A DNA stretch of 64,000 nucleotides from Bacteroidota bacterium (GTDB taxonomy: Bacteria > Bacteroidota > Bacteroidia > Bacteroidales > JAGNHN01), in the NCBI GenBank assembly GCA_022710185.1, contig JAKLHK010000005.1, forward strand, positions 65,682-129,681, read 5' to 3'. Under the pieces are notes generated by a model. That model saw nothing but the letters and a program-made list of their open reading frames with translations, did not search any database and was not told the origin of the DNA. The stretch's first letter is position 1. Every line of letters starts with the position of its first letter. Positions 2,082 to 38,179 of the stretch are shown here, in pieces. A program made the position numbers and the translations under genes.

Positions 2082-2090
2082 GCCCTGGGA

Positions 2091-3625: not shown

Positions 3626-3632
3626 GGGTAGT

Positions 3633-4728: not shown

Positions 4729-4764
4729 GTGGTAGCATGTGGTAAATAGTGGTAGAAGGTGCAG
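4729..4764 (+). promoter_or_regulatory. Putative MraZ operator: GTGGTA direct repeats with 10-bp periodicity
   Basis: GTGGTA at 4729, 4739 and 4749, plus a degenerate GTGCAG at 4759, all about 30-60 nt upstream of the mraZ ATG. This mirrors the known phased direct-repeat MraZ boxes. Confidence 0.5.
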
Positions 4765-4791
4765 TATATTTACGCCTTGAAGCCTGAACGG

Positions 4792-6172: not shown

Positions 6173-6548
6173 GGAGAACGGAAATATGCCCCAGCCTCCG
6201 CAGCCTGCGCCACAGGGCAAATCACTGGGCATGGTGGCCCGCATCCTGGCCGGAATCCTGGGAGGGAGCATCCTCACCAGGGAGAATGTGGTGCGCTCCC
6301 TGCCCTTTATGTTCTACCTCGCCATGCTGGCCCTGGTATATATCAGCAACAGCTATTACGCCGAGCGTACCATCATCCGCAGTTACCACCTGCGCAAGGA
6401 GATCAAGGAACTGCGGTATGCCTTCATTACCGGACGCTCGGAGCTGATGTTCGAAAGCAAGCAGACCGAGGTGGCCCGCAGACTGGAACCCACAGGGGTC
6501 AGGGAATCGCGCATCCCCCCGCAAAAGATCTCATTGGATACCCCGTGA
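6165..6548 (+). CDS. ftsL: FtsL-like cell division protein
   Basis: 127 aa with a single TM segment (LPFMFYLAMLALVYISNSYY) followed by a helical region. It occupies the canonical slot between rsmH and ftsI. The call rests on position and topology only. Confidence 0.6.
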   Translation: MAKENGNMPQPPQPAPQGKSLGMVARILAGILGGSILTRENVVRSLPFMFYLAMLALVYISNSYYAERTIIRSYHLRKEIKELRYAFITGRSELMFESKQTEVARRLEPTGVRESRIPPQKISLDTP

Positions 6549-10119: not shown

Positions 10120-10123
10120 GGAT

Positions 10124-12727: not shown

Positions 12728-12731
12728 TTCC

Positions 12732-13883: not shown

Positions 13884-14988
13884 CATAATGATCAGCGGAG
13901 GCGGTACCGGGGGGCATATCTTCCCTGCACTGGCCATCGCAGAGGCTATCCGGACGCTGCGGCCTGAGGCGGACTTCCTGTTTGTGGGAGCCCGTGGGAG
14001 GATGGAGATGGAAAGGGTACCCGCCGCGGGCTACCGTATCGAAGGACTCTGGATCAGCGGCCTACAGCGCAGCCTGAGCCTCAGCAACCTCAGCTTTCCT
14101 TTCAAGGTGATGAGCAGTCTGTGGCAGGCCCGCCGCATCATCCGTCGCTTCCGGCCAGCACTGGCTGTAGGGGTGGGCGGATATGCCAGCGCTCCGGCCC
14201 TGTGGATGGCCTCACGCATGGGCATCCCCACCCTGATCCAGGAGCAGAACGCCTTCCCCGGGATCGCCAACCGCATTCTGGCCGGCAGGGCCGACCTCAT
14301 CTGCGTGGCCTATCCGGGCATGGAACGCTATTTCCCGGCATCACGCATCCGGACTACGGGCAACCCTGTAAGGCGTACCATCATGCCGGACCCTGCCCGC
14401 CGCCAGGAAGCGTTGAAGCATTTTGGATTGACTGAAGGCCAACCCGTGGCCTTCATTACCGGGGGCAGCCTGGGTGCCCGCACCCTCAACCAAAGCATCG
14501 CTGGCGGGCTGGATTCGCTTACTGCGGCCGGACTTCAGCTGATATGGCAGACAGGGAAGGCGTTCGAGCCCAGGGCCAGGGAACTGGCAGCAGCCCAAAA
14601 GCACGGCAGCGTGCATGCCACGGCCTTCGTGGAACGTATGGACCTGGCCTATACCCTGGCCGATGTGGTGGTGTCACGTGCCGGCGCCATGGCCATCGCC
14701 GAGCTCAGTTCGGCCGGTAAGGCCTGCATCCTGGTGCCTTCGCCCAACGTCACCGAAGACCATCAGACGCGCAATGCCCTCGCCCTTTCGGAGCGGGGAG
14801 CCGCACAGCTGGTAAGGGATGCCGACGCCCCTGCACAACTGGTGCCCGCCATGATCGCCCTGACGCAGGATACCCGGACCAGGGAATCCCTGGAACGCCA
14901 GATCCTGACCATGGCCTTGCCCGGAGCGGACCTTGAGATCGCCCGGCTTGCCCTGGAACTCATAGACAGCAAAACCTCAAAGAGATAA
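13867..14988 (+). CDS. murG: Undecaprenyldiphospho-muramoylpentapeptide beta-N-acetylglucosaminyltransferase MurG
   Basis: ISGGGTGGHIFPALA N-terminal motif. An alternative ATG lies at 13888. Confidence 0.92.
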   Translation: MQQQLNIMISGGGTGGHIFPALAIAEAIRTLRPEADFLFVGARGRMEMERVPAAGYRIEGLWISGLQRSLSLSNLSFPFKVMSSLWQARRIIRRFRPALAVGVGGYASAPALWMASRMGIPTLIQEQNAFPGIANRILAGRADLICVAYPGMERYFPASRIRTTGNPVRRTIMPDPARRQEALKHFGLTEGQPVAFITGGSLGARTLNQSIAGGLDSLTAAGLQLIWQTGKAFEPRARELAAAQKHGSVHATAFVERMDLAYTLADVVVSRAGAMAIAELSSAGKACILVPSPNVTEDHQTRNALALSERGAAQLVRDADAPAQLVPAMIALTQDTRTRESLERQILTMALPGADLEIARLALELIDSKTSKR

Positions 14989-15018
14989 GCAAAAGCTCAC
15001 GATAGCCACACCCTGACC

Positions 15019-16395
15019 ATGAAAAGGCTCCACGACATACATTCGGTTTACTTCCTCGGCATAGGAGGTATCGGGATGAGTGCCCTGGCCCGTTGGTTCA
15101 GGGCCAGGGGTGCCCAGGTGTCGGGCTATGACCGTACCCCGGGGGCCATCACGCGTCAGTTACAGGAAGAAGGCATTGCCGTGCATTTCGAAGACGATGC
15201 CACCCGGGTACCCGTTCAACCCGACCTGGTGGTCTACACCCCCGCCATTCCCCGGGACCTGCACGAGCTGGTACATGTGCGTTCCATGGGATACTGGCTG
15301 CTGAAACGCTCGGAGGTGCTGGGCATGATCTCTTCCGATATGTTCACCATCGCCGTGGCCGGCACTCACGGTAAAACTTCAGTAACCTCTATGATCGCCT
15401 GGCTGCTGCATGCCACCGGAAAACCGGTCACTGCTTTTATCGGGGGCATCAGCCGCAACTTCGGTTCCAACCTGCTGCTGCATCCCTCAGCCGAGGTTCT
15501 GGTGGCCGAGGCCGACGAATTCGACCGTTCCTTCCTCCGCCTCAAGCCCGATATCGCTGTGGTTACCAGCGTGGATGCCGACCACCTCGACATCTACGGC
15601 AGCCGGCAGGAACTCCTGGATACCTACCGCACCTTTGCCCGTGGCGTACCGTCCACAGGACTGCTGGTCCACAGCGCCAGGGTGAGCGGGTTGCAGCCAT
15701 CCGCAACGGAAGTGAGCTACGGTGAAGGCGAAGGGTGCGAGTGCCAATACACCGGACTGGTATACGAAGGGGACCGCATGCGCTTTGACCTGCATTTCAG
15801 GGAACACCACATGAAGGGGCTTATCCTGAGTGTGCCGGGCCGTCACAACCTGGAGAATGCCCTGGCCGCCCTGGCCGTTTGTCTTCAGCTGGGCGTTGAC
15901 CCCGAAGCCCTTCGCCTTGCCCTGGCCAGCTATCGCGGGGTGGAACGCCGCTTCGATTACCGTATCCGCAGGGATGACCTCATTTATATCGATGATTACG
16001 CCCATCACCCCGAAGAGCTCCTTGCCTTTATCCAGGCGGTAAAGGAATTATATCCAGGCCGCAGGCTCACCGGTATCTTCCAACCCCACCTCTACAGCCG
16101 GACCCGTGACTTTGCCGATGGCTTTGCCCGCAGCCTCGACCTGCTGGACGAACCCATCCTGATGGACATTTATCCGGCCCGCGAGCAGCCGATCCCCGGG
16201 GTAGACTCCGGCATGATCCTCAGGCGCATGCGCAATCCGAACAAGAGCGTGATGACCCGCACCGGGATCCTTGACCGCCTCAGCCATGCCCCCCTGGAGG
16301 TAGTGCTCACCATGGGCGCCGGAGACATCGACCGCCTGGTGCCGGAGATCGAGAACATATTGAATTCAGTGTCCAATCTTTTCCCCGGGTCATGA
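15019..16395 (+). CDS. murC: UDP-N-acetylmuramate--L-alanine ligase MurC
   Basis: FLGIGGIGMSALA and VAGTHGKTSVTSM motifs. Confidence 0.92.
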   Translation: MKRLHDIHSVYFLGIGGIGMSALARWFRARGAQVSGYDRTPGAITRQLQEEGIAVHFEDDATRVPVQPDLVVYTPAIPRDLHELVHVRSMGYWLLKRSEVLGMISSDMFTIAVAGTHGKTSVTSMIAWLLHATGKPVTAFIGGISRNFGSNLLLHPSAEVLVAEADEFDRSFLRLKPDIAVVTSVDADHLDIYGSRQELLDTYRTFARGVPSTGLLVHSARVSGLQPSATEVSYGEGEGCECQYTGLVYEGDRMRFDLHFREHHMKGLILSVPGRHNLENALAALAVCLQLGVDPEALRLALASYRGVERRFDYRIRRDDLIYIDDYAHHPEELLAFIQAVKELYPGRRLTGIFQPHLYSRTRDFADGFARSLDLLDEPILMDIYPAREQPIPGVDSGMILRRMRNPNKSVMTRTGILDRLSHAPLEVVLTMGAGDIDRLVPEIENILNSVSNLFPGS

Positions 16396-17177
16396 AAAAG
16401 GCGCTCCACATACTGGTATGGGTGCTCCTCGCCGGAGCCGTGGTGCTCCTTCCGGCCTTCGCAGCCAGGGAACGTGCCCAGCTGCCGTGCCAGGGCCAGG
16501 TCTTCAGCCTCGATGCCGGCGGACAGGCTGCCCTCTTGAGCACCCGGGACCTCGAAGACTTTCTGCTGCACCGCTTCGATACCCTTCAGGGACGTGCAGC
16601 GACCGATATCGACCCCGGCGCCATGGAGGATTGGCTGAAGAAACACCCCTATGTGCTGAAGGCCGAGGCCTATATGGACATGGACCGTACCCTTCGTCTG
16701 CAGGTCATCCAGGAACAGCCCCTGCTGAGGATATTCAGGGCCTCAGGCGCTTCGGTATACCTGAGCCGCAGTGGCAGGATCATGCCGCTGAGGGAAGGCC
16801 TGGCCCTGCGCATCCCCATCCTGAGCGGATACCTGGGCGAACTGCCGGTAGAAGGTCACAGCATAGATCCTCAGCGCCACGCACGGCTGGCCTCCGCCCA
16901 CCGTCTGGGACTGCTCCTGGAAAAGGACGATTTTCTGCGCCTGCTGGTCAGCCAGATCTATATCGAACCCCATGGGGACCTCCGCATGGAGCCCCGCATC
17001 GGCAAACACTCCATCATCGTGGGTGACTCCACCGGGCTGGAGTCGAAGCTGGAGAACCTCGAGGCCTTCTACCGCCAGGGACTGGTGCGGGGGCCCTGGG
17101 ATCGCTACGAGCTTATCAATCTGAAGTATAAGGACCAGGTCGTGTGTACTAAACGTAAAACTTATGAAATCATCTGA
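16392..17177 (+). CDS. ftsQ: Cell division protein FtsQ
   Basis: 261 aa with an N-terminal TM anchor and a POTRA-like region. ATGA overlap with murC, and it sits between murC and ftsA. Confidence 0.7.
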   Translation: MKKALHILVWVLLAGAVVLLPAFAARERAQLPCQGQVFSLDAGGQAALLSTRDLEDFLLHRFDTLQGRAATDIDPGAMEDWLKKHPYVLKAEAYMDMDRTLRLQVIQEQPLLRIFRASGASVYLSRSGRIMPLREGLALRIPILSGYLGELPVEGHSIDPQRHARLASAHRLGLLLEKDDFLRLLVSQIYIEPHGDLRMEPRIGKHSIIVGDSTGLESKLENLEAFYRQGLVRGPWDRYELINLKYKDQVVCTKRKTYEII

Positions 17178-18432
17178 AATCATCGTCGGGCTCGATATCG
17201 GGACCACCAAGATCGCCGCGATCGTCGGACGCCGCAATGAGTTCGGCAAGATCGAGATCCTGGGTTCGGGCAAAAGCCCCTCGCTGGGCGTCAGGAGGGG
17301 CGTAGTATCGAACATCGAAAATACGGTCAAGTCCATCCGTGCCGCGGTGGAAGAGGCCAGCGAGCGTTCCGGGGTGGACATCCGCTACGTGAACGTGGGC
17401 ATTGCAGGACAGCACATCAAGAGCCTGCAGCATCGCGGGGGGATCATCCGCAATTCCCGCGAAGAGGAGATCAACCAGGCGGATATCGACCGTCTGCATT
17501 CCTCCATGTTCAACCTGGCCATGAGTCCCGGGGAAGAGATCATCGATGTGATCCCCCAGGAGTTCATTATCGATGGGGAGCCCGGGCTGAAGGAGCCTAT
17601 CGGGATGCTGGGCAACAGCCTCGAAGCCAATTTCCACATCATCACAGGCCAGACCACGGCAGCCAAGAATATTTATAAATGTGTGAAGAAGGCCGGCCTG
17701 GAAGTAGTGGAGCTCATCCTTGAGCCCCTGGCCTCTTCGGCAGCCTGCCTGAGCGAGGAAGAGAAGGAAGCCGGGGTGGTGCTCGTGGACATCGGCGGGG
17801 GAACCACCGACATCGCCATCTTCCAGGACGGCATCATACGGCATACCGCCGTGATCCCCTTCGGAGGGGAGATCATCACCGAAGACATCAAGGAAGGCTG
17901 CAGTATCATCCGCAAGCATGCCGAAGAGCTCAAGGTGAGGTTCGGCAGCGCCCTGGCCAGCGAGAACCGCGATGAGGAGATCGTGTCCATCCCCGGCCTC
18001 AGGGGAAGGCCCGCCCGCGAGATCACCCTGAAGAACCTGGCCAGCATCATCCAGGCCCGCATGGAAGAGATCATCGAATACGTGTATTTCGAAATAAAGA
18101 ATAGCGGGTACGAGCGTAAGCTCATCGCCGGCATCGTACTCACCGGCGGCGGCGCCCAGCTCAAACATATCAGCCAGCTCACCCAGTTCATCACCGGCAT
18201 GGATACCCGCATCGGGTATCCCAACGAACACCTTGCCAAGGAGGTGGGACGCGAAATGGCCAGCCCCATGTACGCCACCGGCATCGGCCTGGTGATCACC
18301 GGCATGGAACGCTTCGAACGCGAACTGGTGAAGGAGAACATGTTAACACGAAACGACCGCAAGGCCCCGCGTCGGGAAAAAAGCGGCTTCTTCGAGAAAA
18401 TCAAGAACTGGTTCGAAGAAGAACAGATCTGA
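17164..18432 (+). CDS. ftsA: Cell division protein FtsA
   Basis: Actin-fold motifs VGLDIGTTKIAAIVG and VDIGGGTTDIAIF, with a C-terminal amphipathic tail. Confidence 0.92.
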   Translation: MKSSEIIVGLDIGTTKIAAIVGRRNEFGKIEILGSGKSPSLGVRRGVVSNIENTVKSIRAAVEEASERSGVDIRYVNVGIAGQHIKSLQHRGGIIRNSREEEINQADIDRLHSSMFNLAMSPGEEIIDVIPQEFIIDGEPGLKEPIGMLGNSLEANFHIITGQTTAAKNIYKCVKKAGLEVVELILEPLASSAACLSEEEKEAGVVLVDIGGGTTDIAIFQDGIIRHTAVIPFGGEIITEDIKEGCSIIRKHAEELKVRFGSALASENRDEEIVSIPGLRGRPAREITLKNLASIIQARMEEIIEYVYFEIKNSGYERKLIAGIVLTGGGAQLKHISQLTQFITGMDTRIGYPNEHLAKEVGREMASPMYATGIGLVITGMERFERELVKENMLTRNDRKAPRREKSGFFEKIKNWFEEEQI

Positions 18433-21138: not shown

Positions 21139-22215
21139 TCATCCATCCCCCCTCCTTCGCTTGAAATCCTTCTTGTAGTAATCCTTGATCACCTTCCCCA
21201 TGAGTTTTTCCCGCCTCTTCTTCTCGCCGGCCTCGGTCTCGAAGTGGGCACGCTCCCTTTCCAGCCGGAGGTAGTTGTCCCAGGCGTCCGCGTCGATCTC
21301 CCCCTGCTCCAGGGCGTGCAGCACGGCACAGCCGTTCTCCCGGGTGTGGGTGCAATCGGCATAACGGCATTGCCGGGCCAGGTCGAGGATGCGGTCGAAG
21401 GTGGCTTCCAGCCCCCCGCCCCCATCGGTAATGCCTACCTCCCGCATGCCGGGGTTATCAATGATCAGCCCGCCCCCCTTCAGCAGCACAAGCTCCCGGT
21501 GGGTGGTGGTATGTCTCCCCTTGTTCGTGCTTTCGCTCAGGGTCCGTGTGTGCATGTACTCTCCCCCAGCCAGATGGTTGAGCAGGGTTGACTTCCCTGC
21601 ACCGGAAGAGCCCAGCAGGCAATAGGTCTTGCCGGCCTCTATCCTCTGCCTCAGCTCCTCCAAACCTTCTCCGCTCACCGCGCTCATCACCAGGAAGGGC
21701 ACCTCCGGATGGCGCTGCTGCAGCCGCTCCCGCACCTCATGGCAGTGGTTCTCCCCGCACAGGTCAGCTTTGGTGAGCACTATCACCGGGCTCACCCGGG
21801 CGGCATAGCACAGGGTGAGGTAGCGATCCAGACGGTTCAGGTTGAAATCGCGGTCCAGGGCCTGCACCAGGAAGGCATAATCGATGTTGGCCGCGATGAG
21901 TTGTACTTCCCCGTGCTGTCCCACGGCCTGGCGGGTAAGCGCAGCGGTCCGCGGAAGGACCTTATGGATCAGGGCCTGCTCCTCCCCCGCAGCGATCAAG
22001 GCCACCCAATCGCCCACGGCAGGAAAATCCTCCCGGTTGCGGGCACTGAACCTCAGGTTCCCCGTTACCTCCGCCTGCACCTCCCCCCCATCGGTCATCA
22101 CGATATAGCGTTCCTTGTGCTCGGCAGTCACCCTCCCCACACCAAAACCCATCAACCCCTGCTCCCGCCGGTAGTGCTCCAGGTCTTCAGTATAACCCCA
22201 TTCGATGATATTCAT
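21139..22215 (-). CDS. rsgA: Ribosome small subunit-dependent GTPase A (RsgA/YjeQ)
   Basis: Circularly permuted GTPase (TKADL ... GSSGAGKSTLLN) with the zinc knuckle CRYADCTHTRENGCAV. It carries a basic C-terminal tail. Confidence 0.9.
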   Translation of the reverse strand: MNIIEWGYTEDLEHYRREQGLMGFGVGRVTAEHKERYIVMTDGGEVQAEVTGNLRFSARNREDFPAVGDWVALIAAGEEQALIHKVLPRTAALTRQAVGQHGEVQLIAANIDYAFLVQALDRDFNLNRLDRYLTLCYAARVSPVIVLTKADLCGENHCHEVRERLQQRHPEVPFLVMSAVSGEGLEELRQRIEAGKTYCLLGSSGAGKSTLLNHLAGGEYMHTRTLSESTNKGRHTTTHRELVLLKGGGLIIDNPGMREVGITDGGGGLEATFDRILDLARQCRYADCTHTRENGCAVLHALEQGEIDADAWDNYLRLERERAHFETEAGEKKRREKLMGKVIKDYYKKDFKRRRGDG

Positions 22216-22288
22216 GACATTAAAATATAATGTCCCCCAGGCAGCGCCTGACCGGCATCAGGCCTCTCCCCAAATCAACCAGCAGAAA

Positions 22289-25594
<3,306 letters not shown>

Positions 25595-25704
25595 GGGTCT
25601 GTTATTTTCTTGCCCGGCTTGGTTCCGGGTGCCGGGGATACCTGCAATAATCGTTCTATTTCTTCCCCCTGCCATAATGGCAAGAAGGAGTGCAAAGGTA
25701 CGAA

Positions 25705-25740
25705 TACTAAAAAGAGCGGTTTTTACCGCTCTTTTTAGTA
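25705..25740 (-). terminator. Hairpin terminator overlapping the stop of the DUF2795 gene
   Basis: Perfect 16-nt inverted repeat tactaaaaagagcggt / accgctctttttagta with a tttt loop. On the minus strand the stem ends in a U-run. It lies between the DUF2795 stop and the secA start. Confidence 0.55.
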
Positions 25741-27646: not shown

Positions 27647-27959
27647 AGTGACTAATTTTGAACGGGTTAGAAGCACATCAATGGCCTGGTCTTAAACTGC
27701 CGTTGTTCCTTGTCCCTTGCACAATATCCCCATCCTTCTGAAATCTGAGATCGTAAATTCCGCCAGCAGGCGGACAATCCTTTTTCGATATTCCATAATT
27801 CACCACAGATTACACAGATTTTCACAGAGGTACCAGTGCCTGAAGTTGATAGTACTTGGAGTTAGGAGTTAAGAGTACCTGGAGTGCTGTACGCTGTCCG
27901 CTTCGCGTTTTTCCGCTATTCGCCTATTTTCATTATCATAAAATATACGCCAAAATCGT

Positions 27960-27992
27960 GGCGGCTATTTCCAGATAATGCAAATAGCCGCC
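27960..27992. other. Perfect 11-bp stem hairpin in the left flank of the island
   Basis: ggcggctattt (27960-27970) pairs with aaatagccgcc (27982-27992) across an 11-nt loop, followed by an A-run on the plus strand. Function unknown. Confidence 0.5.
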
Positions 27993-28305
27993 AAAAATTC
28001 CAGCCACACCCAGCAGAGGGCACGTTGCTCAGTTACTCGCCGGACAGCCAGCCCTTGGCCGGGATTGCGCAAGTGTCTGATTATGTGAAACAAGGAATTT
28101 CCCTTGCATATCACAGCGACCATGTGACTAAAAATCTAACCCAAGGTACCCATAGTCCAAATATTCTCAATATCTTTAGGTCTGTGACTTAGGCTCTTGA
28201 TTATCAGACAATGAACACCGTCCGCTAAATGCGAAATATCCGCCATAGGTTCTGATAGCGAAATGTTATGCCCAATGCTGAAAAACAACCTAACGACAAC
28301 ATAAA

Positions 28306-29760
28306 ATGAAGAAATTTGACCTAAACATTGAGAAAATTCTTGAAAACTGGGAAACATTTCATGCTATCCGAGAACTAATTGCAAATGCACTTGATGAACA
28401 ACTTATTACTAATACAAAGGAGGTTGAAATATTCAAAGTAGGTAATACTTGGAAAATCAGAGACTTTGGACGGGGATTAAAATATACTCATTTGACACAA
28501 AATGAAAACCAAGAAAAACTTTCAAATCCTCATGTTATAGGGAAATTTGGAATTGGACTAAAAGATGCTTTAGCAACTTTCGACAGAAAAGGTATAAAAG
28601 TAATTGCAAAATCAAAACACAGTAAAATAACAATCGCAAAATCTGAAAAAGAAGGGTTCAAAGATTTATTGACTCTTCATGCAATTATTGAAGCCCCACA
28701 AGACCCAAACTTTATTGGGACCGAGTTTGAACTTGTTGGGATAAATGATAATGACATTAACGAGGCAAAAAAATTATTTCTAAAGTTTTCAGGTGAGAGA
28801 ACAATGGAAATTACAAAACAAGGTCAAGTAGTTAGAAAAAACAGCACGTTTGGCAACATTTATATCAATGGAGTAAAAGTTGCGGAAGAAGAAAATTTTC
28901 TCTTCAGCTACAATATTACTGTATTAAATGCTTCAATAAAAAAAGCTCTTAACAGAGAAAGAACAAATGTCGGGAGAAGTGCATATTCAGAATCAGTAAA
29001 AAAAATATTATTGTCTTGCCAATCTAAGGAGGTTGCTGAAACATTGGCTAAAGATTTGACAAATATAAATAGAGGAACTGCACACGACGAGTTAACCTGG
29101 CTTGATGTTCAGGAACACTCTGTTAAAATATTAAATCAACAGGGCAAATTTCTTTTTATAACTTCGTTTGAAGCAATGCAACATCCAGACATGATAGACC
29201 AAGCTAGAAATAGTGGTCATGAAATCATAACAATCCCTGAAAATTTAAAGTATAAAATTCAAGGCTCAACCGACTTTAACGGTAGCCCTATTGTGGATAT
29301 TGGGCAATTCGTTGAAAACTACAATAACAGTTTCAATTTTAACTTTATAGACCCAAATAAATTAAGTCAAAAGGAAAAAGCCATTTATGACCAAACTCCA
29401 AAAATCATTGAACTATTTGGTGGTAAACCATATAAAGTAAAGTCAATAAAAATTTCATCTACAATGAGAAAAGACTTTTTTGGTGAAGTTGAAACACTTG
29501 GTTGCTGGGATGATAATACAAACTCAATAGTTATTTCACGTAAAGTATTAAATAACATTACAGACTTTTCAGGAACTTTGATACATGAGCTCGTTCATGC
29601 TGATACTGGACATGATGATGTAACTAGGGATTTTGAAACATCACTGACAACAATAATTGGACGACTATCTTCAACAATTCTTGGACAAAAAGTTTCCTTA
29701 ATTAGCAATTCAAATTCTAAAAAGAATTCTTCTTGGCTTCAAAAATTTTTTGGAGAGTAA
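28306..29760 (+). CDS. GHKL (Bergerat-fold, MORC/Hsp90-like) ATPase fused to a C-terminal HExxH zincin-like motif
   Basis: 484 aa. N-box ELIANALDE (aa 23-31), G1 box DFGRGL (53-58), G2 box GKFGIGLK (79-86), and IHELVHADTGHDD (HExxH at aa 427-431, nt 29584-29598). Confidence 0.75.
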   Translation: MKKFDLNIEKILENWETFHAIRELIANALDEQLITNTKEVEIFKVGNTWKIRDFGRGLKYTHLTQNENQEKLSNPHVIGKFGIGLKDALATFDRKGIKVIAKSKHSKITIAKSEKEGFKDLLTLHAIIEAPQDPNFIGTEFELVGINDNDINEAKKLFLKFSGERTMEITKQGQVVRKNSTFGNIYINGVKVAEEENFLFSYNITVLNASIKKALNRERTNVGRSAYSESVKKILLSCQSKEVAETLAKDLTNINRGTAHDELTWLDVQEHSVKILNQQGKFLFITSFEAMQHPDMIDQARNSGHEIITIPENLKYKIQGSTDFNGSPIVDIGQFVENYNNSFNFNFIDPNKLSQKEKAIYDQTPKIIELFGGKPYKVKSIKISSTMRKDFFGEVETLGCWDDNTNSIVISRKVLNNITDFSGTLIHELVHADTGHDDVTRDFETSLTTIIGRLSSTILGQKVSLISNSNSKKNSSWLQKFFGE

Positions 29761-30102
29761 TGACAAGTGACAATAAGAAAAATGAATAAAAGCACAGGGC
29801 ATAACAATGTACATATTGCAGGGCGGGGTTTGGAGGTATGCCAACTGCGGATTCTCGCATCGCAGTTCCGTGTCCTTCGGACAGGAACGCTCTCCGAAAT
29901 CCGCCCCGACAACATGTACCAACCGTTACCGCCAAGTGTAAGAGACAGACAACGACATAGAAAAACTGAAAAGTAAACCATTGTGAAAGGACAGAAAAAA
30001 GAAATATTGACTAGACCAGAGACCCGACACTCGAGCCGACCCGATGTTTTTTATTTTTTGCCCACCGCACATTTTTTAAAACAATTGCCGACCCACATTG
30101 CA

Positions 30103-30155
30103 CACATTGCCAAAGCCCCACAAGCCAACGCTACAACCAAAGCTTTGTCAAAGAG
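30103..30155. repeat. 53-bp direct repeat, copy 1 (upstream of the 1668-aa gene)
   Basis: cacattgccaaagccccacAagccaacGctacaaccaaagctttgtcaaagag matches 36982-37034 at 51 of 53 positions. Confidence 0.9.
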
Positions 30156-30191
30156 TGCAATTTTGCCGACACACTAAAAAAGAATATCACT

Positions 30192-33100
30192 ATGCTTTAT
30201 ATAAAAGACCTTTCCTTTTTCAGACAGTATTATAAATCGCAAGAAGCTTTAAATTTTGATAGGTCGATAGATACTTCATTTATTAACACTTTTCACCCTG
30301 AAAAACCAACGAATAAAACTAAAGGTTTTTCTTATTTGGTATATGGTGCAAGAGGTAATATCGGAGGATTTTTAAGGAGTGCTTCATTAAATGTCGCTGC
30401 TGACCAACAAGCGATTTATGAACTTATTCAAAATGCTGACGATTGCGAGGCAAATCTTTTCAGTGTTTTCTACAACAGGGAATATCTATTGTGTATCAAC
30501 AATGGTACTCCATTCTCAAAAAGGAATATGTCAGCAATATTAAATGTTGGCGATTCAGACAAAGATGCAGAAGATATTGGAACATTTGGGATAGGTTTTA
30601 AAATTATTCACCGACTCTTGGGTGAGGATGATGGATTGAAAGCGATATTGAATGATTATGCCGGGCCAATTATATACAGTTGGAATCAGTACAATCATTT
30701 AAAAAGATTACTAAGTGATGATGAAATTGTAATTAATAAAAACGGTTCAAGAGATGATGATTGTCCCTGGTTATTGAAAATAATTTATACCTGTTTTCCA
30801 ACGCATTTAGGTGAAAGTATAAAAAATGAAAAATATTCTGATGAAACATTATTTACAATTGAGGAATTCAATGAATTCAAACTTTTTCTTAAAAATTCAT
30901 TAGCAAAACTTAATACGTTTACGGAAAACAATCTTCGACAAGGTTCAATATTTTTCCTAAGAATTGGTGCAGATAAGTTCAAATACATTGATGAGAATAT
31001 AGATAACATTTTTAATGGAATTGGTTATTCATTCAATTTCCTAAATCATTTGAAGCGAATTTATATTAATGAAAAAGAGATAAATAAAGAGAAAATCACC
31101 TTAGAAAAATTTGAATATCCTATTGGTAGCGATCAATACAACTTAATTAGACCAAGAAATGAAGAACGGAATATTGACTTTTCTTTTTCATATTATAAAA
31201 ACTACAAAACCGCATTAAAACTAAAGGATGTACCAAATATTTATAACTTCTTCTCAATGGAGGAAGAAAAAAATGGTTGGTGTTTCTTATTGCATTGCAA
31301 TTCTTTTGATATGCATAATGATAGAAGAAAACTTCAACCAAATTCAAATATAAATGAACGACTTTTACCCAGTATTGCTAACGAAATCAAACAATTTTTA
31401 GTAGACCTTTCCGACACAAATACTGATTCATTTATCAATATTTATCCATCGTTATTAATAAGTGATATTCCAGAAAGTAAACAACATCTTAAAGATTATT
31501 TTTTCGATATTTTGACTACCATTTTATCGGAGAGAATACCGACAGATAATGGGTTTTCTGATAATTCACAGGATGTGGTAATTAAAAAAACAAAACTACC
31601 AATATCACCAAGAGATTGGGGAGTAGAAAAAGATTGGTTTTATTGGACGGATTTTAAAGAGGATGAGGTAATAATCAAAGAAGCCCAAAAAGAAGAAAAA
31701 ATTGGCCTAGAAAAAGTGTCAATTTCATCATTGATTGAAAATGGAGACATTGATACAATCAATGAATGGATTTTTAATGCGAATGAAAAGGATTTTACTC
31801 TCTTTCTAAATGAGTTAGAAAAGGATATTCCTGATGAAAATTTCCTTGATTTGCAATTTTTAAAATGCTCCGATACTTATTACTATTCAATCAATGAAAT
31901 TGCTTCAAATTCTAATGTTTTGTGCCTTTTTGAAAAGATTCACGAAATAAAGGATATTCTAAACGAATTAGAGTTAATTACAACGGAAATAAATATTTCT
32001 GATTTCAAGAACATCGCAGAAAAAGCTAGTAAAAAACTTCCGTATCTTAAAACTATTGGTGAAAAAAAGGTTTTTGATGATTTTATCAAAGATGCAACAA
32101 CTGAAAATAATTTAACTCCAAAAAGTAAAAAAAGATTATTCGTTGCAATAAAAGAACTTTATAATGTTGGGGACAAATCATTAAAGGAATGGGAATTGTT
32201 TTCCAATAATGAAATGGAAATATGCTCCTTAAACACATTAATAAGCCCTTCAATCAAGGTTGAGAAATGGCTTATCAAATATCAAATCATTAAAAGTGAA
32301 TTCTTTGAAGAACTTGAGGAGTATTTGTTGCAAGCAGATGACATTTACCCATCAATTATTTATCCACTTTGGGACGAGTTAATAGAAGTCGATGAAATTG
32401 ATGAAATAACCATAGGTGAATTTTATTCTTCTGTAAAAAACTATTTTGATGAAGAAGCGCATAAATCACTAACATTAAATAAGAAGGCGTACATTTTTAC
32501 TTCTGAAGGGTTCTTTCCAACATCTGAGGTTTTCTATAATGAAGTTTTTAACTCCATTATGGATTACCCATCCTTAAAAAGCTCAATAGAAAAAGTTACT
32601 GGATTTAAGACACCATCAAAAAAAGTTTTAAAGTACTTAACTGAAAGTCCTTTTAAAACAGATAATGACAAATTATTGGACCATCTTTCTGATTGTTCCA
32701 TAGAGCAGTCAGAAGCTTATGAATTGCTGAGATATTGTCAAAAAGCAGATGTTAAACTTTTTTCGAAAGGAGTTTTTTGTGAATCTGGTAATGATATTGA
32801 CTGGGAATGCAATGATTCAAAAATACAGTACTTTTCAGAAGATTCAAGATTAATTGAATTTATCAATGAATATTTAGAAGATACTTTTTATCTTCTACCA
32901 TCAGCTTTACAGGACTTCAAATTTTTTGAAGGTATCAGACGAAATCAAGAACTTTATGAAGAAATAATTGAGCAACTTGATAATATAAATGATTTGGCGG
33001 CTGAGTTCTTGCCATTATTGAAACATAAAGAAGTTATTAAATCATATATATCAAATTTACCTGATATAAGGATTGAAAACAGAATTTCATTTGATAAAAG

Positions 33101-35198
33101 TAGTTTTGAACATATTGTGGTTTCAAATATCATCTCACATTTTGAAGACGAAGAACTTGAAGAAATAAAGGAGAGAATTATAATTTGCGATGATGATACT
33201 GAATTTAAATTAGAAGAAATAGTTACTGGTAACGAGGTTCAATTTGACATCGATAATAAGTTATACAATATCAAAGTTTCGGAAATATTGCCTGACTCTG
33301 ACAATTTTTCCAAAGCTGAAATACTTGACGTTATTATTGCAAATTTCAAAAAACTTGAACTGTCCAAAACCAAAATTGATAAATTACTCTCTGTCGAGAT
33401 TGAAGAGGACGACCTTGCTGAAAAACTTGCCGAGGAATTACTTGGGTCACTTGAAGATAATATCCTTGAAACTGCTGAACAGATTGCTTTTTGTCTTTTA
33501 TATGAATTACAGGCAGGGTGGTCTAAATTTGATGATTTTCAGATTTACGCTTCGAACAATGAAACATATAAACTAAATGAGGTATGGTATGCCAAACCAT
33601 TTTCATTTCTAAGTGAAACAGGTGCAATTGGGGAACAATATAAAGGGCTTTCAAAGTTGCTCAAGATTAAAGATGAAAACCCAATTTTTAAAGTCAGTGA
33701 TAGTTGTATTTTTCTTTATAAACCTGCTTTTGATGAAGATGGTAGATTTGTTTGCAATTATATTGATGAGAAATTAGACGATGACAATAGTATTGCGTTA
33801 CTCGATTTTTTGTTTGAAGAATATAATAAACGAGGAAAGGAAAGCAGACGTGACTTTGAGGAAATTGATGATTGGTCAAAACTTGGAGACACTGAAACAG
33901 AAAAAATAATAGGCATCAATCCGCATAATACAATCTTTATCGAAAACGATAAATTTATGTTGTCTGATGAAGTCGTACCGGAGTGGATTCAGGATTGGGC
34001 AAAAGATGAAGCAAAAATTTCATTCTTAAAAGTATTGGGAATTCATTTCAATGATTCGGATATTGTTAAGCTAAGGGAATCTCTTTATGATGAAGATGGC
34101 TCTATAACAAAGAATGACATAAATGGAAGTAACTCCTTAAATGCATTTTTATTGGAGAACACTTTAAAATGGCTTGTAGAATCAGAGATATGGGAAGATA
34201 AGGTAATTGATGAACCTGTAAAAGTTGAACTTCTTGATGCGATTATTGAAAAATTAGGTTGGGATTTAGAGGATTATTGGTCTGTTGACATTGAAGAACT
34301 AAATGAAAACAGCGAGGAATGGGTAGATGAGGGTTATTCAAATTGGCGTGAAGAAGAGGATTCATTTGAAATAAGAATGTATAATGATCAAATGCCTTAT
34401 ATCTTACAATATGAAAATAATATTCTTGCTGAGAAAAATCAAGATGAATACTGGTATGATGATGAAAATCAAATATTTTATACAAACAAAAATAAATCCA
34501 CCCATTTATTGCTTCAAAATGCTGCTGAAGAAGAGTTGTTTGATTTAGACACAATAAAACCACTAATCCAACAAGGTCTGGTAAAAGTTAAAGATTATGT
34601 AGATCGCATAGAGCAACTTGAAGCAGAATTACAGCAATTTAGACAACCTAAAGGAGATATTACTAGAGGTACTGCTGATTCAGAAACAATGGGTGCAGTT
34701 CTTGATGAAACTCTAAATATGGTTAGAGAAGAACTAGAACAAGACGAGAATTATAATTGCACACATTGGGACAATTCACGATTTCCAAAGACTTTGGTTC
34801 AAGGGGTATTATATAAAGAGATTCCGATAAAGCTGATCGTTCGCAGTTGTCAAAGAGGTAGACTCCATCTAATCCCTAAAGAATGGCTATTACTATCAGA
34901 ACCTAATACTTTTTTAGTGCTACGGTTATCAAAACACAAAATTGAAGTAATCCCAGAACCACTTAAGGAGCTTGCCGAATCAAACAACCTATTTAATATG
35001 AATTTTGATTTGGAAAGATTAACCACAAATGGGGTCACAGCTTTAAGCAAGGCAATTGAAAGTTCAAATATTAAATATGTTGGTGTTGGTTTCGTAATAG
35101 ATGCACCAAGATATTCCAGAAGTATTGAACTTAATGAAATCGGATTATACGTTACAAATCAGGGTGATATTTCATCTGCAAATGACAATGAGTTTTAA
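30192..35198 (+). CDS. Giant sacsin/NO VEIN-like GHKL ATPase domain protein with a possible NOV_C (DUF3883)-like C-terminal module
   Basis: 1668 aa. YELIQNADD (aa 76-84), INNGTPF (102-108) and GTFGIGFK (130-137) reproduce the sacsin SRR pattern (ELIQNAxDA ... NN..F ... GrFGIGF). About 1300 aa of acidic/lysine-rich sequence has no motif I recognise. Residues about 1500-1590 resemble NOV_C. Confidence 0.7.
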   Translation: MLYIKDLSFFRQYYKSQEALNFDRSIDTSFINTFHPEKPTNKTKGFSYLVYGARGNIGGFLRSASLNVAADQQAIYELIQNADDCEANLFSVFYNREYLLCINNGTPFSKRNMSAILNVGDSDKDAEDIGTFGIGFKIIHRLLGEDDGLKAILNDYAGPIIYSWNQYNHLKRLLSDDEIVINKNGSRDDDCPWLLKIIYTCFPTHLGESIKNEKYSDETLFTIEEFNEFKLFLKNSLAKLNTFTENNLRQGSIFFLRIGADKFKYIDENIDNIFNGIGYSFNFLNHLKRIYINEKEINKEKITLEKFEYPIGSDQYNLIRPRNEERNIDFSFSYYKNYKTALKLKDVPNIYNFFSMEEEKNGWCFLLHCNSFDMHNDRRKLQPNSNINERLLPSIANEIKQFLVDLSDTNTDSFINIYPSLLISDIPESKQHLKDYFFDILTTILSERIPTDNGFSDNSQDVVIKKTKLPISPRDWGVEKDWFYWTDFKEDEVIIKEAQKEEKIGLEKVSISSLIENGDIDTINEWIFNANEKDFTLFLNELEKDIPDENFLDLQFLKCSDTYYYSINEIASNSNVLCLFEKIHEIKDILNELELITTEINISDFKNIAEKASKKLPYLKTIGEKKVFDDFIKDATTENNLTPKSKKRLFVAIKELYNVGDKSLKEWELFSNNEMEICSLNTLISPSIKVEKWLIKYQIIKSEFFEELEEYLLQADDIYPSIIYPLWDELIEVDEIDEITIGEFYSSVKNYFDEEAHKSLTLNKKAYIFTSEGFFPTSEVFYNEVFNSIMDYPSLKSSIEKVTGFKTPSKKVLKYLTESPFKTDNDKLLDHLSDCSIEQSEAYELLRYCQKADVKLFSKGVFCESGNDIDWECNDSKIQYFSEDSRLIEFINEYLEDTFYLLPSALQDFKFFEGIRRNQELYEEIIEQLDNINDLAAEFLPLLKHKEVIKSYISNLPDIRIENRISFDKSSFEHIVVSNIISHFEDEELEEIKERIIICDDDTEFKLEEIVTGNEVQFDIDNKLYNIKVSEILPDSDNFSKAEILDVIIANFKKLELSKTKIDKLLSVEIEEDDLAEKLAEELLGSLEDNILETAEQIAFCLLYELQAGWSKFDDFQIYASNNETYKLNEVWYAKPFSFLSETGAIGEQYKGLSKLLKIKDENPIFKVSDSCIFLYKPAFDEDGRFVCNYIDEKLDDDNSIALLDFLFEEYNKRGKESRRDFEEIDDWSKLGDTETEKIIGINPHNTIFIENDKFMLSDEVVPEWIQDWAKDEAKISFLKVLGIHFNDSDIVKLRESLYDEDGSITKNDINGSNSLNAFLLENTLKWLVESEIWEDKVIDEPVKVELLDAIIEKLGWDLEDYWSVDIEELNENSEEWVDEGYSNWREEEDSFEIRMYNDQMPYILQYENNILAEKNQDEYWYDDENQIFYTNKNKSTHLLLQNAAEEELFDLDTIKPLIQQGLVKVKDYVDRIEQLEAELQQFRQPKGDITRGTADSETMGAVLDETLNMVREELEQDENYNCTHWDNSRFPKTLVQGVLYKEIPIKLIVRSCQRGRLHLIPKEWLLLSEPNTFLVLRLSKHKIEVIPEPLKELAESNNLFNMNFDLERLTTNGVTALSKAIESSNIKYVGVGFVIDAPRYSRSIELNEIGLYVTNQGDISSANDNEF

Positions 35199-36968
35199 AT
35201 GCAATTAGACCGAACTGAACATATTAAACTGTTAGACCTTGAGTTAAAAACTCAATCAGACAATTATTTAAAACTGGTTTTACAGAAAGCAACTGCCCTT
35301 ATTGAACAAGAGGAGGTCTTCACAAGTCAGTTTGTGAAATTTGAAGATGGAATACTTGTATTAAAATTAAAAACAGAAAAAGCACTTCCTCGCAAAGGTC
35401 AATACTTATCAGCAGTTTTACTAAATGATGAAAAAAGAAGTTATAAAAACTGGGGTGATTTGTCTTGGGCTGAATTGAGAAACAAATATCAAAATAGTTT
35501 TTCTGAATGTGTTTGTGTTTGGCATAAGTCATATGATGAGAAAAGATTTCAGCTAGCAGGCTTTAAAGGTATTTCACTTGATTTTGCTGGGAAATTGGTT
35601 GACAAGTGTTTAGTTACCCTTGGTCCGCACGAACCACCTTTGAAATATTTGCAAAATTTAATCGAGATAGTTACAAATACTCCAAAAGATCTACCCTCTG
35701 CAAGATTCCTTGATATTCATTTAGCTAATAATGAGTGGATTCCTACGATACTTGATGAGAAACGTAACTTATCTGATTTTATTCAAACGCAACTTTCTAT
35801 TTCTGATGAAATTATTATTCAAGGACCTCCAGGAACAGGGAAGACTTATCAAATGGCAAAATTAATTGCTGACTTATTAGATAAAAACAAAAGTGTCCTT
35901 GCTACTTCATTAACCAATCGTTCGTTAATAGAATTGGCTTCAAAGAAGTTTTTGGAAAATCATCGTAAAAGTGAAAAGATTTACAAAACAAATCTTACTA
36001 AAGACGAACAAGAAGAATTGCCAGGGTTATTAAACTCAAAGGATATTCAGGTAATATCAGGTACAGTATTGCTTTCAACATTTTATATCTCAAGTGGCTT
36101 TGCAAAAGAAATACAAGATGAACCACCGTTTGATTTTGTTATTGTTGATGAAGCAAGTCAGGCTTTATTATCAATGTTTTGTGCTGCAAAGAAACTAGGG
36201 AAGAAAGTTGTTTTTATTGGAGACCCGTATCAATTACCACCGGTTGTTGAAGTCAATAAGGATATAATTGAAAAGAAAAATGCTATAAGTTTTGTTGAAG
36301 GATTCAATACTATCTGTAGAAATTTATCAATTCCATCATTTCAACTAACAGAAACCTACAGGCTGCCAACAAGAGCTACCCAATATACTGGTCTATTTTA
36401 CCGTAACACATTAGTTTCAAAGGCAAATAAAAAACTGAGATTCCAATTTCCTGAATGCGGTCTTGAATTTAATAAATATCTAAACCCTGATGGTGGACCT
36501 GTATTGATTAAATCAAGTTTTCCAATTGGTAATGACAACCCTGATTTTGGTCTTTTTTTAATCATAGACTTTTTAAAACAGTTGATGTTTGTTTTGGAAA
36601 AGGATTTCAAGATAGCTTTAATTGCAAAAACTAAAAAGGCAGTAAGAGCAATTCAAAAAGCAATGACAGCAACTTTTGGCAGTGATGATAGGATTTTAAT
36701 TGAAACTGTTGAAAGAATTCAAGGTCTTACTTGTGACTTAACCATTTTTTTCATCCCAAATTCAAGTATGAATTATTCTTTGAAAAAGCCGCTATTTAAT
36801 GTCGCAACAAGTAGAGCAACGAGACACACAATAATTATTGCAGACAAAGCAATTACTACATATCCTATTGCTGACAAACTTGTTAGAGATTTTATTCATA
36901 AATTGAACGATGAATATAGTTTTGAAATTGAACCAAAAATAAATATGAAAAAACTTACAGAAGGTTAA
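35199..36968 (+). CDS. Superfamily 1 helicase, Upf1/DNA2-like (AAA_11/AAA_12 type)
   Basis: 589 aa. Walker A GPPGTGKT (aa 209-216, nt 35823-35846), Walker B VIVDEASQ, GDPYQLPPV, TYRLP, ERIQGLTCD and NVATSRATRH. The ATG directly abuts the TAA of the upstream gene. Confidence 0.85.
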   Translation: MQLDRTEHIKLLDLELKTQSDNYLKLVLQKATALIEQEEVFTSQFVKFEDGILVLKLKTEKALPRKGQYLSAVLLNDEKRSYKNWGDLSWAELRNKYQNSFSECVCVWHKSYDEKRFQLAGFKGISLDFAGKLVDKCLVTLGPHEPPLKYLQNLIEIVTNTPKDLPSARFLDIHLANNEWIPTILDEKRNLSDFIQTQLSISDEIIIQGPPGTGKTYQMAKLIADLLDKNKSVLATSLTNRSLIELASKKFLENHRKSEKIYKTNLTKDEQEELPGLLNSKDIQVISGTVLLSTFYISSGFAKEIQDEPPFDFVIVDEASQALLSMFCAAKKLGKKVVFIGDPYQLPPVVEVNKDIIEKKNAISFVEGFNTICRNLSIPSFQLTETYRLPTRATQYTGLFYRNTLVSKANKKLRFQFPECGLEFNKYLNPDGGPVLIKSSFPIGNDNPDFGLFLIIDFLKQLMFVLEKDFKIALIAKTKKAVRAIQKAMTATFGSDDRILIETVERIQGLTCDLTIFFIPNSSMNYSLKKPLFNVATSRATRHTIIIADKAITTYPIADKLVRDFIHKLNDEYSFEIEPKINMKKLTEG

Positions 36969-36981
36969 CCCGATTTGCAAG

Positions 36982-37034
36982 CACATTGCCAAAGCCCCAC
37001 GAGCCAACACTACAACCAAAGCTTTGTCAAAGAG
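36982..37034. repeat. 53-bp direct repeat, copy 2 (downstream of the helicase gene)
   Basis: It matches 30103-30155 with 2 mismatches and begins 14 nt after the helicase stop codon. Confidence 0.9.
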
Positions 37035-37357
37035 CTTGCAAAGCCAACGCACCGAGAAAAATTGTTTTAAAAAATTTGCCGACACTTAAAAAAATAAAAA
37101 ACGCTGACACACAAGCCGACAGAAAAAAGTAAAATGACAATGACACGAAAACTGAATATTAACAATGGTATACAAGACTGGAAGACAGAACACCAGGCGG
37201 TAACAGGCGGTATATTTTATTGCCGAGACAGTGGGTATTTCAGCGTTTCTGCATCTAATAAACTTTCGTGTAACTTGACAGTGAAGTGCTTCGAAATCGG
37301 CAACAAAAACATACCGCCAATCCGTTAGCAGCCATATCAAAATAGCAGGACTAAACT

Positions 37358-37849
37358 ATGAGAATCTTTTTAATTATTTTATTCTTTTTAGCTTTCACTT
37401 TAGTTAATGCCCAATACAAAATGTTTTCAGGTATTCATGATACAATCAACTTAGATTTGTCGACTTTACTGGAGAATACTGGCTTTGGGAAAGCAACATA
37501 CTATTATGATGATATTGAGAAGAAAGATGGTGTTTGGAACTTCTATCCAATGATTAATTTGTCAAAATCATTAACCGCAGTATGGGTCAGCACAATTCCA
37601 GGCCGAAATAATGGCTATACATTTCTTTTAATTTTTGATATTAATACTCATAAAATCTCGGATACCTTGGGACCATATTATGATTCTAGTATTGATGCTA
37701 TTAAGGGCAGAATAAAGAAGAATAATTTAAATTATTTAAAGGTTCGACTATCAAATCCACCGGAAGTAGAGAATTCAAAATATACTATCAGGGAATATAA
37801 ACGTATTGAGGGTAACCTTAAAGAATATAGAAGTCGTGATAATTATTGA
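37358..37849 (+). CDS. Small secreted hypothetical protein
   Basis: 163 aa, AT-rich codon usage. Signal peptide MRIFLIILFFLAFTLVNA followed by Q at +1. No recognisable catalytic motif. Confidence 0.6.
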   Translation: MRIFLIILFFLAFTLVNAQYKMFSGIHDTINLDLSTLLENTGFGKATYYYDDIEKKDGVWNFYPMINLSKSLTAVWVSTIPGRNNGYTFLLIFDINTHKISDTLGPYYDSSIDAIKGRIKKNNLNYLKVRLSNPPEVENSKYTIREYKRIEGNLKEYRSRDNY

Positions 37850-38179
37850 TACGGCTGCTAATAAGTAAGGCTTCGTGCGGCGATAGCCCAGTCCGCCATC
37901 TGGCGGATTGCACGAAATCCCGCGCCTTATGGGGTTTAAGTATCGAAAGCAGTGATCAGGGAAGAGCGAACGACAAGGTTCTTGGATAAGCTAAAGCAGG
38001 CAGGCTGGTTGAAAGGCCAGTAACCGGGTCTTTTGAAAGGATTTAGGGGCGAAATATCTTTCGGGGACTAATCCCGCGCATCAGCGCGTAAACATTACCG
38101 GACCCGGCAGGCGGCAGGATTTGTCAGGCCTCGCTCAACCTAAGCATTGATTTGGGCAGATGCACCCCGGCCCCTCCCC

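Follow-up and report, generated by a model that had tools for sequence, protein, structure and literature searches.

A 64-kb stretch of a Bacteroidales contig (JAKLHK010000005.1; the whole stretch of 64,000 nucleotides (nt) is called the window, and positions count from its first letter) carries an AT-rich island at about 28.0-37.9 kb. This island is probably an integron-like array built up from three or more cassettes that were acquired independently. The second cassette would be a two-gene, helicase-coupled variant of the Tiamat defence system, in which a giant TmtA-family protein (g2) would act as sensor or clamp and an Upf1-like superfamily 1B (SF1B) helicase (g3) as effector arm; two further genes, g1 and g4, would occupy cassettes of their own. 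TmtA, and Tiamat itself, are known. What is new is the helicase-coupled variant that lacks the NOV_C domain, and our literature search found no description of a TmtA or sacsin-like GHKL protein paired with a helicase, or of an alternative C-terminal domain in this family.

An initial annotation of the island had described g1, g2 and g3 as a candidate for one unnamed three-gene defence system. The three co-oriented open reading frames (ORFs) were found exactly where it had placed them:

28306-29760, plus strand: g1, ORF of 484 amino acids (aa)
30192-35198, plus strand: g2, ORF of 1668 aa
35199-36968, plus strand: g3, ORF of 589 aa

The foreign composition of the island, which has sharp borders and lies between core genes, was also confirmed. 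Its GC content is 0.28-0.37, against 0.56-0.68 in both flanks (overall, about 30% GC inside a contig of 62% GC), and the flanking genes are of housekeeping types (PMT_2/TPR glycosyltransferase, RsgA, ABC ATPase and UbiA). All the motifs reported for the three proteins occur in the translations (ELIANALDE, DFGRGL, GKFGIGLK and HELVH in g1, ELIQNADD and GTFGIGFK in g2, GPPGTGKT and the other SF1 motifs in g3), and their residues are invariant or nearly so in alignments of homologues, as are the catalytic motifs of the g2 and g3 enzymes in particular. The assignment of two GHKL proteins, an Upf1-like SF1B helicase and an HExxH motif was likewise supported. The statement that the trio is almost the whole island was correct in that three intact genes are there, but a fourth, small gene, g4, had been overlooked. 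The three-gene system itself has to be rejected, because g2 already bears the name TmtA and because the three genes do not co-occur.

The identity of g2 follows from its match to the PADLOC TmtA model PDLC03970, which extends over the full length of the protein (E=0, 1146.7 bits, residues 4-1614 on profile positions 3-1538 of 1552) and assigns it to the known Tiamat system; g1 has no PADLOC match. The N-terminus of g2 is a GHKL domain of the sacsin/Hsp90 type, which scores 66.4 bits against the NCBIfam model P_loop_sacsin (NF047352, cut-off 50) and 32.3 bits against the Pfam SACS model, just below the cut-off of 32.8. The N-box ELIQNADD and the G-box DIGTFGIGFK are both present and nearly invariant in homologues. 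The GHKL head is followed by a long helical body of about 1,300 aa, which has no relative in the PDB by sequence, and by a C-terminal domain (about residues 1493-1668) that we call paired-type. No match to DUF3883/NOV_C (PF13020), a nuclease domain of the PD-(D/E)XK type, was found in g2 at E<=0.1. By eye, a VVKS...NEW pattern in this domain is reminiscent of the (D/E)xK...NEW of NOV_C; we do not claim a degenerate NOV_C domain, the hhalign probability being 0.2%. In one other assembly (a 15,984-nt contig, cluster 2 members P0248-P0253) the g2 orthologue is broken up into pieces of 132-301 aa and could be a pseudogene or the product of a frameshift error.

The g3 protein is an Upf1-like SF1B helicase whose best PDB relatives are IGHMBP2, Sen1, Upf1 and Dna2. 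Its N-terminal domain (residues 1-195) is family-specific: it occurs in 114 clusters (50% identity) among 1.84 billion representatives and always heads proteins of either about 555-620 aa or about 690-795 aa. The best PADLOC match is MkoA (E 5e-23), and the matches to MkoA and MkoC cover the helicase core only (best stretch, residues 298-367). No PIN domain was found in g3. The ATG of g3 (35199) abuts the stop codon of g2 (35198), and in the other loci checked the corresponding genes overlap or lie a few bases apart.

To what extent g2 and g3 belong together is apparent from their homologues (loci are given by number where they have to be told apart). A helicase of this type abuts a TmtA-like giant in 18 loci. 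Close relatives of g2 (76-89% identity; L001-L006, L012 and L013) always have a g3 homologue directly downstream, and the same is found for distant relatives in L007, L015, L019, L020, L023 and L026. A metagenome scan with the helicase alignment returned 12 true family members, which match over the full length including the N-terminal domain. All nine of these that have enough upstream DNA are preceded by an abutting ORF of 1318-1873 aa with E[LF][LIV]QNAxD and GxGIGFK-type motifs, and each of the six giants scanned (five from this helicase-first set plus that of L007) matches one of the TmtA models PDLC03970, 03972 or 03967. On the other side, tblastn found no g1 homologue in about 30 TmtA/helicase loci, and neither TmtA nor a g3-type helicase was found beside g1 in four loci of g1 homologues from genomes and metagenomes and in three plasmid copies. 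Thus g1 homologues never stood beside homologues of g2 or g3 in the loci examined; g2 and g3 are a strict, conserved genetic pair, and the trio is no unit. Of the single system proposed earlier the g2-g3 part holds as a conserved unit, but g1 falls outside it, in a separate predicted cassette.

The surroundings of the pair vary from locus to locus and include OST-HTH/DUF3825 with ParA, GmrSD with type I restriction-modification (R-M), BREX with McrBC, and PemK. We read the second cassette as a putative system against mobile genetic elements. The pairs adjoin BREX, McrBC, GmrSD, type I R-M and PemK genes; to this extent the defence flavour seen in the initial annotation was justified.

The pairing is accompanied by an exchange of the TmtA C-terminus. 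Four TmtA homologues (L014, L016, L017 and L018) have no helicase within 10 kb and are termed solo. A hidden Markov model (HMM) built from the NOV_C ends of the solo proteins recognizes all four solo TmtAs and none of the 18 helicase-paired ones, while an HMM of the last ~175 residues of the paired TmtAs recognizes 13 of the 18 paired and none of the four solo proteins; the matches of the latter model include divergent members of the 03972 and 03967 subfamilies. Solo members of g2's own subfamily, PDLC03970, share 31-37% identity with g2 over about 1,400 residues and do have the NOV_C end. In the loci sampled, the NOV_C and paired-type C-terminal modules of the Tiamat family are therefore shown to be mutually exclusive. 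A C-terminal PIN_4 domain is present on seven of the 18 partner helicases (E 1e-19 to 1e-21) and absent from g3 and the ten others.

Judged from the sequence, g1, the g2-g3 pair and g4 lie in separate predicted cassettes bounded by attC-like sites. The elements, all on the plus strand, are as follows:

28266-29925, plus strand: cassette 1, 1660 nt, from the TT after G28265 to G29925, containing g1 only
29794-29936, plus strand: attC-like site A, after g1, GGGCATAAC-AA-(long imperfect hairpin)-CAACC-G|TTACCGCC
29926-37324, plus strand: cassette 2, 7399 nt, containing g2 and g3
37193-37335, plus strand: attC-like site B, after g3, GGCGGTAAC-A-(hairpin)-AATCC-G|TTAGCAGCC
37325-37934, plus strand: cassette 3, about 610 nt, containing g4
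37358-37849, plus strand: g4, small ORF of 163 aa with a Bacteroidota-style signal peptide
37853-37945, plus strand: hairpin C', diverged or truncated, after g4, ending GGGG|TTTAAG

At least two bulged hairpin sites in the same orientation (A and B), both with R''/R' cores, are thus present. They share the architecture CCAG-N5-AAC-A(A)-stem...stem-(C)AACC or AATCC-G|TT-N6-AAG, with a hairpin of about 140 nt. The cores are GCATAAC...GTTACCG in site A and CGGTAAC...GTTAGCA in site B; the AAC/GTT core is invariant in 11 sites, and the full 7-mers fit RYYYAAC/GTTRRRY only partly. Site A has a DNA fold z of -3.7 and scores 104.6 bits with the covariance model R1, which we built from seven aligned sites; site B scores 130.2 bits and has a conserved fold with compensatory changes. 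Hairpin C', with a fold z of -1.7, was not detected in the R1 scan and was assigned only from the junction complementarity described below.

The bases that follow G|TT complement the R'' arm of the next site downstream and not that of the same site. At the left end, the 16 nt of 28264-28279 (TGTTATGCCCAATGCT) can pair with the R'' arm of site A (29791-29806) with 88% complementarity. The junction G and first bases of cassette 2 (29925-29933, GTTACCGCC) complement the R'' arm of site B (37196-37204, GGCGGTAAC) at 9/9 positions, and the junction G and first bases of cassette 3 (37324-37333, GTTAGCAGCC) complement 37853-37862 (GGCTGCTAAT), after the g4 stop codon, at 9/10. In L004, GTTATGGGC is complementary at 9/9 positions to GCCCATAAC, which follows the GmrSD gene. 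In L001 and L003 the complementarity is only 6/9. A 5' end complementary to the cassette's own R'' is the signature of integron-type recombination at G|TT via a circular intermediate.

Within the sites, 19 of 32 pairs in the alignment of seven show compensatory changes. In 11 distinct sites 86% of the cells are paired, as against 31-39% when the partner is slid, and the covariation score is 0.51 compared with 0.19 in shuffles, none of 500 of which reached 0.51. The outer extension of the R box is often unpaired within one site, as predicted by the junction model, in which whatever follows G|TT is already part of the next cassette. Outside its training set R1 found matches after a ParA-like gene in L001 (E 5e-14), after a PemK toxin-antitoxin module in L003 (E 6e-12), after the solo NOV_C TmtA of L017 (E 8e-7) and after a 174-aa ORF in L116 (E 2e-4), all on the coding strand and just 3' of the gene unit. 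A simple scanner for AAC...GTT hairpins did no better on the real than on shuffled sequence, and the covariance model was used instead.

The extent of cassette 2 agrees with these boundaries. Its nucleotide homology to L001, L003, L004 and L012 is 86-92%; the shared sequence begins at about 29994-30080 and ends at 37327-37345, at the G|TT of site B, beyond which the genomes diverge. On the left, homology of the g2-g3 region to other genomes stops short of g1 (it starts at or after 29994), and the 430-nt spacer between g1 and g2 contains the attC-like junction. Cassette 2 also contains a direct repeat of about 62 nt:

30098-30160, plus strand: upstream copy, just upstream of g2
36975-37041, plus strand: downstream copy, just downstream of g3

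The two copies are 96% identical in a 53-nt core (0.01 expected by chance) and contain the palindrome CTTTGTCAAAG. In L001 and L004 both are retained; the upstream one is absent from L006 and mostly absent from L012, where it falls within an indel of ~105 nt. As a general feature of TmtA-helicase pairs the repeat was rejected, since five distant pairs and viral contigs lack it.

How might the pair work? If it behaves like members of the Hsp90, MORC and sacsin families, g2 would dimerise through its ATP-driven, Hsp90/MORC-like GHKL head and either sense or clamp invading nucleic acid. Through its paired-type C-terminal domain it would dock or activate g3, which would then translocate 5'-3' as the effector arm and unwind or strip phage replication or transcription intermediates. 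In sister lineages the PIN nuclease fused to the helicase would cleave these intermediates, and the helicase of the window, having no PIN domain, would interfere through its motor activity or through host nucleases. Which way signals pass, that the two proteins touch, what cassette 2 acts on and which phenotype it gives are all inferred.

A serious rival to this scheme, although on balance we think it less likely, keeps the same pair and reverses the roles: the helicase would be the nucleic-acid sensor, as proposed for the Mokosh or Hachiman helicases, and the GHKL giant the effector, which might, for example, use ATP to remodel or compact DNA or proteins, or might harbour a catalytic region so far overlooked in its body of ~1,300 aa. 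Upf1-like helicases have been proposed as RNA or DNA sensors in Mokosh (Millman preprint), PIN is dispensable in 11 of the 18 partners, so that the helicase protein is not necessarily the killing arm, and the large, uncharacterised body of g2 is devoid of a PDB relative by sequence. However, the catalytic module that is added in paired systems sits on the helicase (PIN) and not on TmtA, and the nuclease of solo TmtA is exactly what goes missing when the helicase is present. A different view of the genes, that g1, g2 and g3 form one unnamed three-gene defence system with the HExxH of g1 as its effector, is by far the least probable. The three are indeed co-oriented, tightly packed and alike in composition, and they comprise two GHKL proteins and a helicase. 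But g1 homologues are in no other TmtA/helicase locus examined, the relatives of g1 stand alone among unrelated genes in Bacteroidota, Gammaproteobacteria, Bacillus and haloarchaea, a 430-nt spacer with an attC-like junction separates g1 from g2 while the homology of the pair ends before g1 is reached, and g2 is already named TmtA.

The remaining two alternatives concern the array and its cargo, and we regard both as improbable to a similar degree. The hairpins could be repetitive extragenic palindromic (REP)-like elements, terminators or regulatory RNAs, and the island an ordinary horizontally acquired defence island; the lack of an integrase in the window (with an IntI1 sequence as probe), the lack of Rfam matches, the non-canonical spacers, a spacing of 7.4 kb that exceeds typical cassette sizes and the great rarity of integrons in complete Bacteroidetes genomes (PMC9024848) all speak for it. 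Terminators or REP elements, however, do not predict that the 9-16 nt after G|TT complement the R'' arm of the next site in four cassettes, nor are they suggested by an invariant AAC...GTT core whose outer R extension pairs poorly within the site, or by inter-genome homology that breaks exactly at G|TT. The sites, moreover, always lie 3' of the gene unit on the coding strand, and the gene next door changes between genomes (a ParA-like gene in L001, the PemK module in L003, GmrSD in L004, the 174-aa ORF in L116). The other alternative takes g2-g3 for a DNA-maintenance or selfish stabilisation module of the array or of a mobile element, with no part in phage defence. It draws on the only remote similarity of the g2 subfamily, whose anti-phage role is predicted, to verified TmtA, and on the toxin-antitoxin cassettes known to stabilise integron arrays, such as the PemK cassette next door in L003. 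Against it, enrichment in defence islands is what placed the family in Tiamat (PADLOC model; Millman Table S20), the pairs lie beside BREX, McrBC, GmrSD and R-M genes, and modular swaps of nucleases (NOV_C, PIN) are typical of defence systems.

Several observations weigh against our preferred reading, an integron-like array with a helicase-coupled Tiamat variant in which g2 senses and g3 acts. For the array, tblastn found no IntI in the 64-kb window (E<=10, with an IntI1 sequence as probe), neither folding nor R1 detected a hairpin upstream of the leftmost junction (28265), and the site spacers are asymmetric (1-2 nt versus 4-5 nt). The 7.4-kb cassette is also far above the sizes reported to recombine well, large cassettes performing poorly in Vibrio (bioRxiv 10.64898/2026.03.17.712381). 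For the link to Tiamat, the verified system of B. cereus FORC_005 falls in PADLOC subfamily PDLC03964 and not in g2's PDLC03970, and in a BLAST comparison with ~400 N-terminal residues of the verified TmtA only a 73-aa ATP-binding stretch of g2 aligned (33% identity, E 1e-6). The g2 C-terminal domain is modelled only poorly by AlphaFold2 (AF2), with a predicted local distance difference test (pLDDT) score of 62, Foldseek against the PDB gave nothing below E 0.07, and hhalign showed no significant similarity between the paired-type and NOV_C domains (probability 0.2%). The pair in the window has no recognisable nuclease at all, the sample comprises tens of loci, not thousands, and the roles of sensor for g2 and effector for g3 are purely our inference.

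The first gene of the island, g1, encodes a GHKL ATPase whose N-terminal and middle domains are Hsp90-like and whose C-terminus is a metallopeptidase-like domain with an HExxH motif. It is assigned to PF25856 (MPN635_N) by precomputed Pfam annotation, and the HExxH residues H427, E428 and H431 are invariant in 41 sequences. In Foldseek, the AF2 model (pLDDT 79.6) matches Hsp90, TRAP1 and GRP94 in their N-terminal and middle domains (E 1e-10), and the C-terminal region gives weak SprT-like and metalloprotease profile matches (phrog_87 metallo-protease, E 7e-4). The family has more than 4,788 matches; among the top matches listed, identity to g1 is 65-96% across Bacteroidota, Gammaproteobacteria, Campylobacterota and Nitrospinae, and plasmid copies in Bacillus, Croceicoccus, Salinibacter and haloarchaea are 41-55% identical. 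In the loci inspected the relatives of g1 are always lone genes with unrelated neighbours, and the nucleotide homology of g1 with other loci is confined to the coding sequence. A literature search on MPN635 found nothing on g1. The gene is best seen as an independent solo cassette, not as a partner of g2/g3, and is a candidate single-gene conflict factor; that it might combine a DNA clamp with an SprT-like protease is speculation.

Three further observations were made on g1 homologues. In L010 (Flaviaesturariibacter terrae, 1-17386) the homologue lies amid about 20 small co-oriented ORFs, among them an Arr-ms rifampin ADP-ribosyltransferase and an HEPN_AbiU2 protein, an arrangement that resembles a cassette array; R1 found no sites in L010, which may use a different attC family. 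The homologues P0228 and P0237 (672 aa) carry a fused TerD domain (PF02342), a module associated with stress and phages. On a lake metagenome contig (L008/L009) the attC-like model gives a weak, partial match at 9420-9496 (21 bits, E 0.017), which overlaps with the g1 homologue at its 3' end.

The small gene g4 had no family match in profile searches of Pfam, PADLOC, NCBIfam and phrog, and its 90% cluster has a single member; it is an orphan in an unrelated cassette. No attachment (att) repeats were found at the borders of the whole island, no tRNA was found, and Rfam, which is without an attC family, gave no match. The host TPR gene is separated from the first cassette junction by a spacer of 660 nt with intermediate GC content. 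It contains a 15-nt inverted repeat with a 5-nt loop at 27959-27993 (TGGCGGCTATTTCCA/TGCAAATAGCCGCCA) and no recognisable attC-like site or attI. In the high-GC flank, a 1177-aa ORF (22205-25738, plus strand) without a Pfam match is overlapped over nearly its whole length by a 1128-aa ORF on the opposite strand (22289-25675, minus strand), the latter probably an artefact of GC composition. In L116 (2319-7351), downstream of the helicase copy and site B, the 174-aa ORF has its own attC-like site and is accompanied by further conflict-type cargo, two Fic-domain genes and a baeRF (bacterial eRF1-like) gene. At a contig end in L025, a Saprospiraceae metagenome-assembled genome, a TmtA homologue is preceded, at a distance of ~2 kb, by a tyrosine-recombinase-like stretch (7795-7965); this stretch shares 49% identity over 57 aa with the C-terminus of IntI1 and might be a lead to the recombinase.

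In a tentative extension of these results, for which we see a real if less than even chance, Bacteroidales would carry a hitherto unrecognised integron-like cassette system with its own conserved attC family of ~140 nt and a yet-unfound recombinase. This system would move unusually large defence cassettes of several genes, including the 7.4-kb Tiamat variant, whose TmtA C-terminal domain would recruit an Upf1-like helicase, with or without PIN, in place of NOV_C. If so, standard integron finders would miss such arrays, with sites more than 4 kb apart and no IntI nearby: the 4-kb clustering distance is the IntegronFinder default, and the sites here are further apart. Should the attC-like sites be real, cassettes are exchanged in Bacteroidales in the manner of integrons, and such exchange can carry defence modules of 7 kb, which would be notable for the phylum.

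For Tiamat, a validated anti-phage system, a natural split form, with its nuclease end swapped for a helicase-docking-type domain and a separate Upf1-like helicase (sometimes with PIN), offers a testable hypothesis of how TmtA signals to its effector and supplies separable components for biochemistry. Annotation in the style of PADLOC or DefenseFinder would tag g2 alone as Tiamat and omit its obligate helicase partner. The separate acquisition of each gene unit is a caution that adjacency in AT-rich islands is not operon membership, and the cassettes show defence genes swapping parts and moving between genomes. The g1 family, with its Hsp90-like GHKL and HExxH domains, is huge, highly conserved, cross-domain and mobile, and is a good candidate for defence screens.

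Compared with known systems, the island resembles integrons and CALINs, the clusters of attC sites without an integrase. Common to them are imperfect hairpins 3' of gene units with R'' of the form ...YAAC and R' of the form GTT..., the G|TT junction, cassette 5' ends that complement their own R'', co-oriented genes, toxin-antitoxin and defence cassettes, and variable neighbours. It differs in the absence of IntI from the window by the IntI1 probe, in a site family that is conserved in sequence, in asymmetric spacers, in its Bacteroidales host and in one two-gene cassette of 7.4 kb, far above the usual size. Integron cassettes that encode phage defence have been described (bioRxiv 10.1101/2024.07.02.601719; PMC12614218).

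The g3 helicase recalls Mokosh, an Upf1-like (COG1112) helicase with a phospholipase D (PLD) nuclease and, in type I, a kinase domain, in being of the Upf1/IGHMBP2/Sen1 type with MkoA as its best PADLOC match, and in the logic of a helicase with a swappable nuclease module, here the PIN domain of g3's sister lineages. Unlike in Mokosh, the partner of g3 is a GHKL giant and its N-terminal domain is family-specific; membership was rejected, the match being to the helicase core only and no PLD or kinase domain being found in g1-g4. Prokaryotic MORC and paraMORC GHKL ATPases reportedly occur in restriction-like operons with helicases and nucleases, as Iyer, Abhiman and Aravind are said to have described in 2008. 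Island and operons share the conflict theme of a GHKL ATPase with a helicase and a nuclease, the GHKL protein being proposed as a clamp or manipulator of DNA, but g2 is sacsin/Hsp90-like and far larger. The operon context of paraMORC is cited in PMC3710099.

Canonical Tiamat is a single gene, annotated 'Hsp90, DUF3684, DUF3883', of which the B. cereus FORC_005 copy is marked verified (Millman et al. 2022 preprint, Table S2). In contrast to it, g2 has a different C-terminal domain of ~170 aa in place of DUF3883, and an SF1B helicase gene is its obligate, translationally coupled neighbour; the verified protein, of subfamily PDLC03964, shares only the ATP-binding motifs with g2 in its available part. 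On the other hand, g2 is matched by the TmtA profile throughout, its GHKL head is likewise of the Hsp90/sacsin type, it is similar in size (~1,600 aa), its relatives reside in defence islands, and the solo members of its subfamily PDLC03970 keep the canonical DUF3883/NOV_C end.

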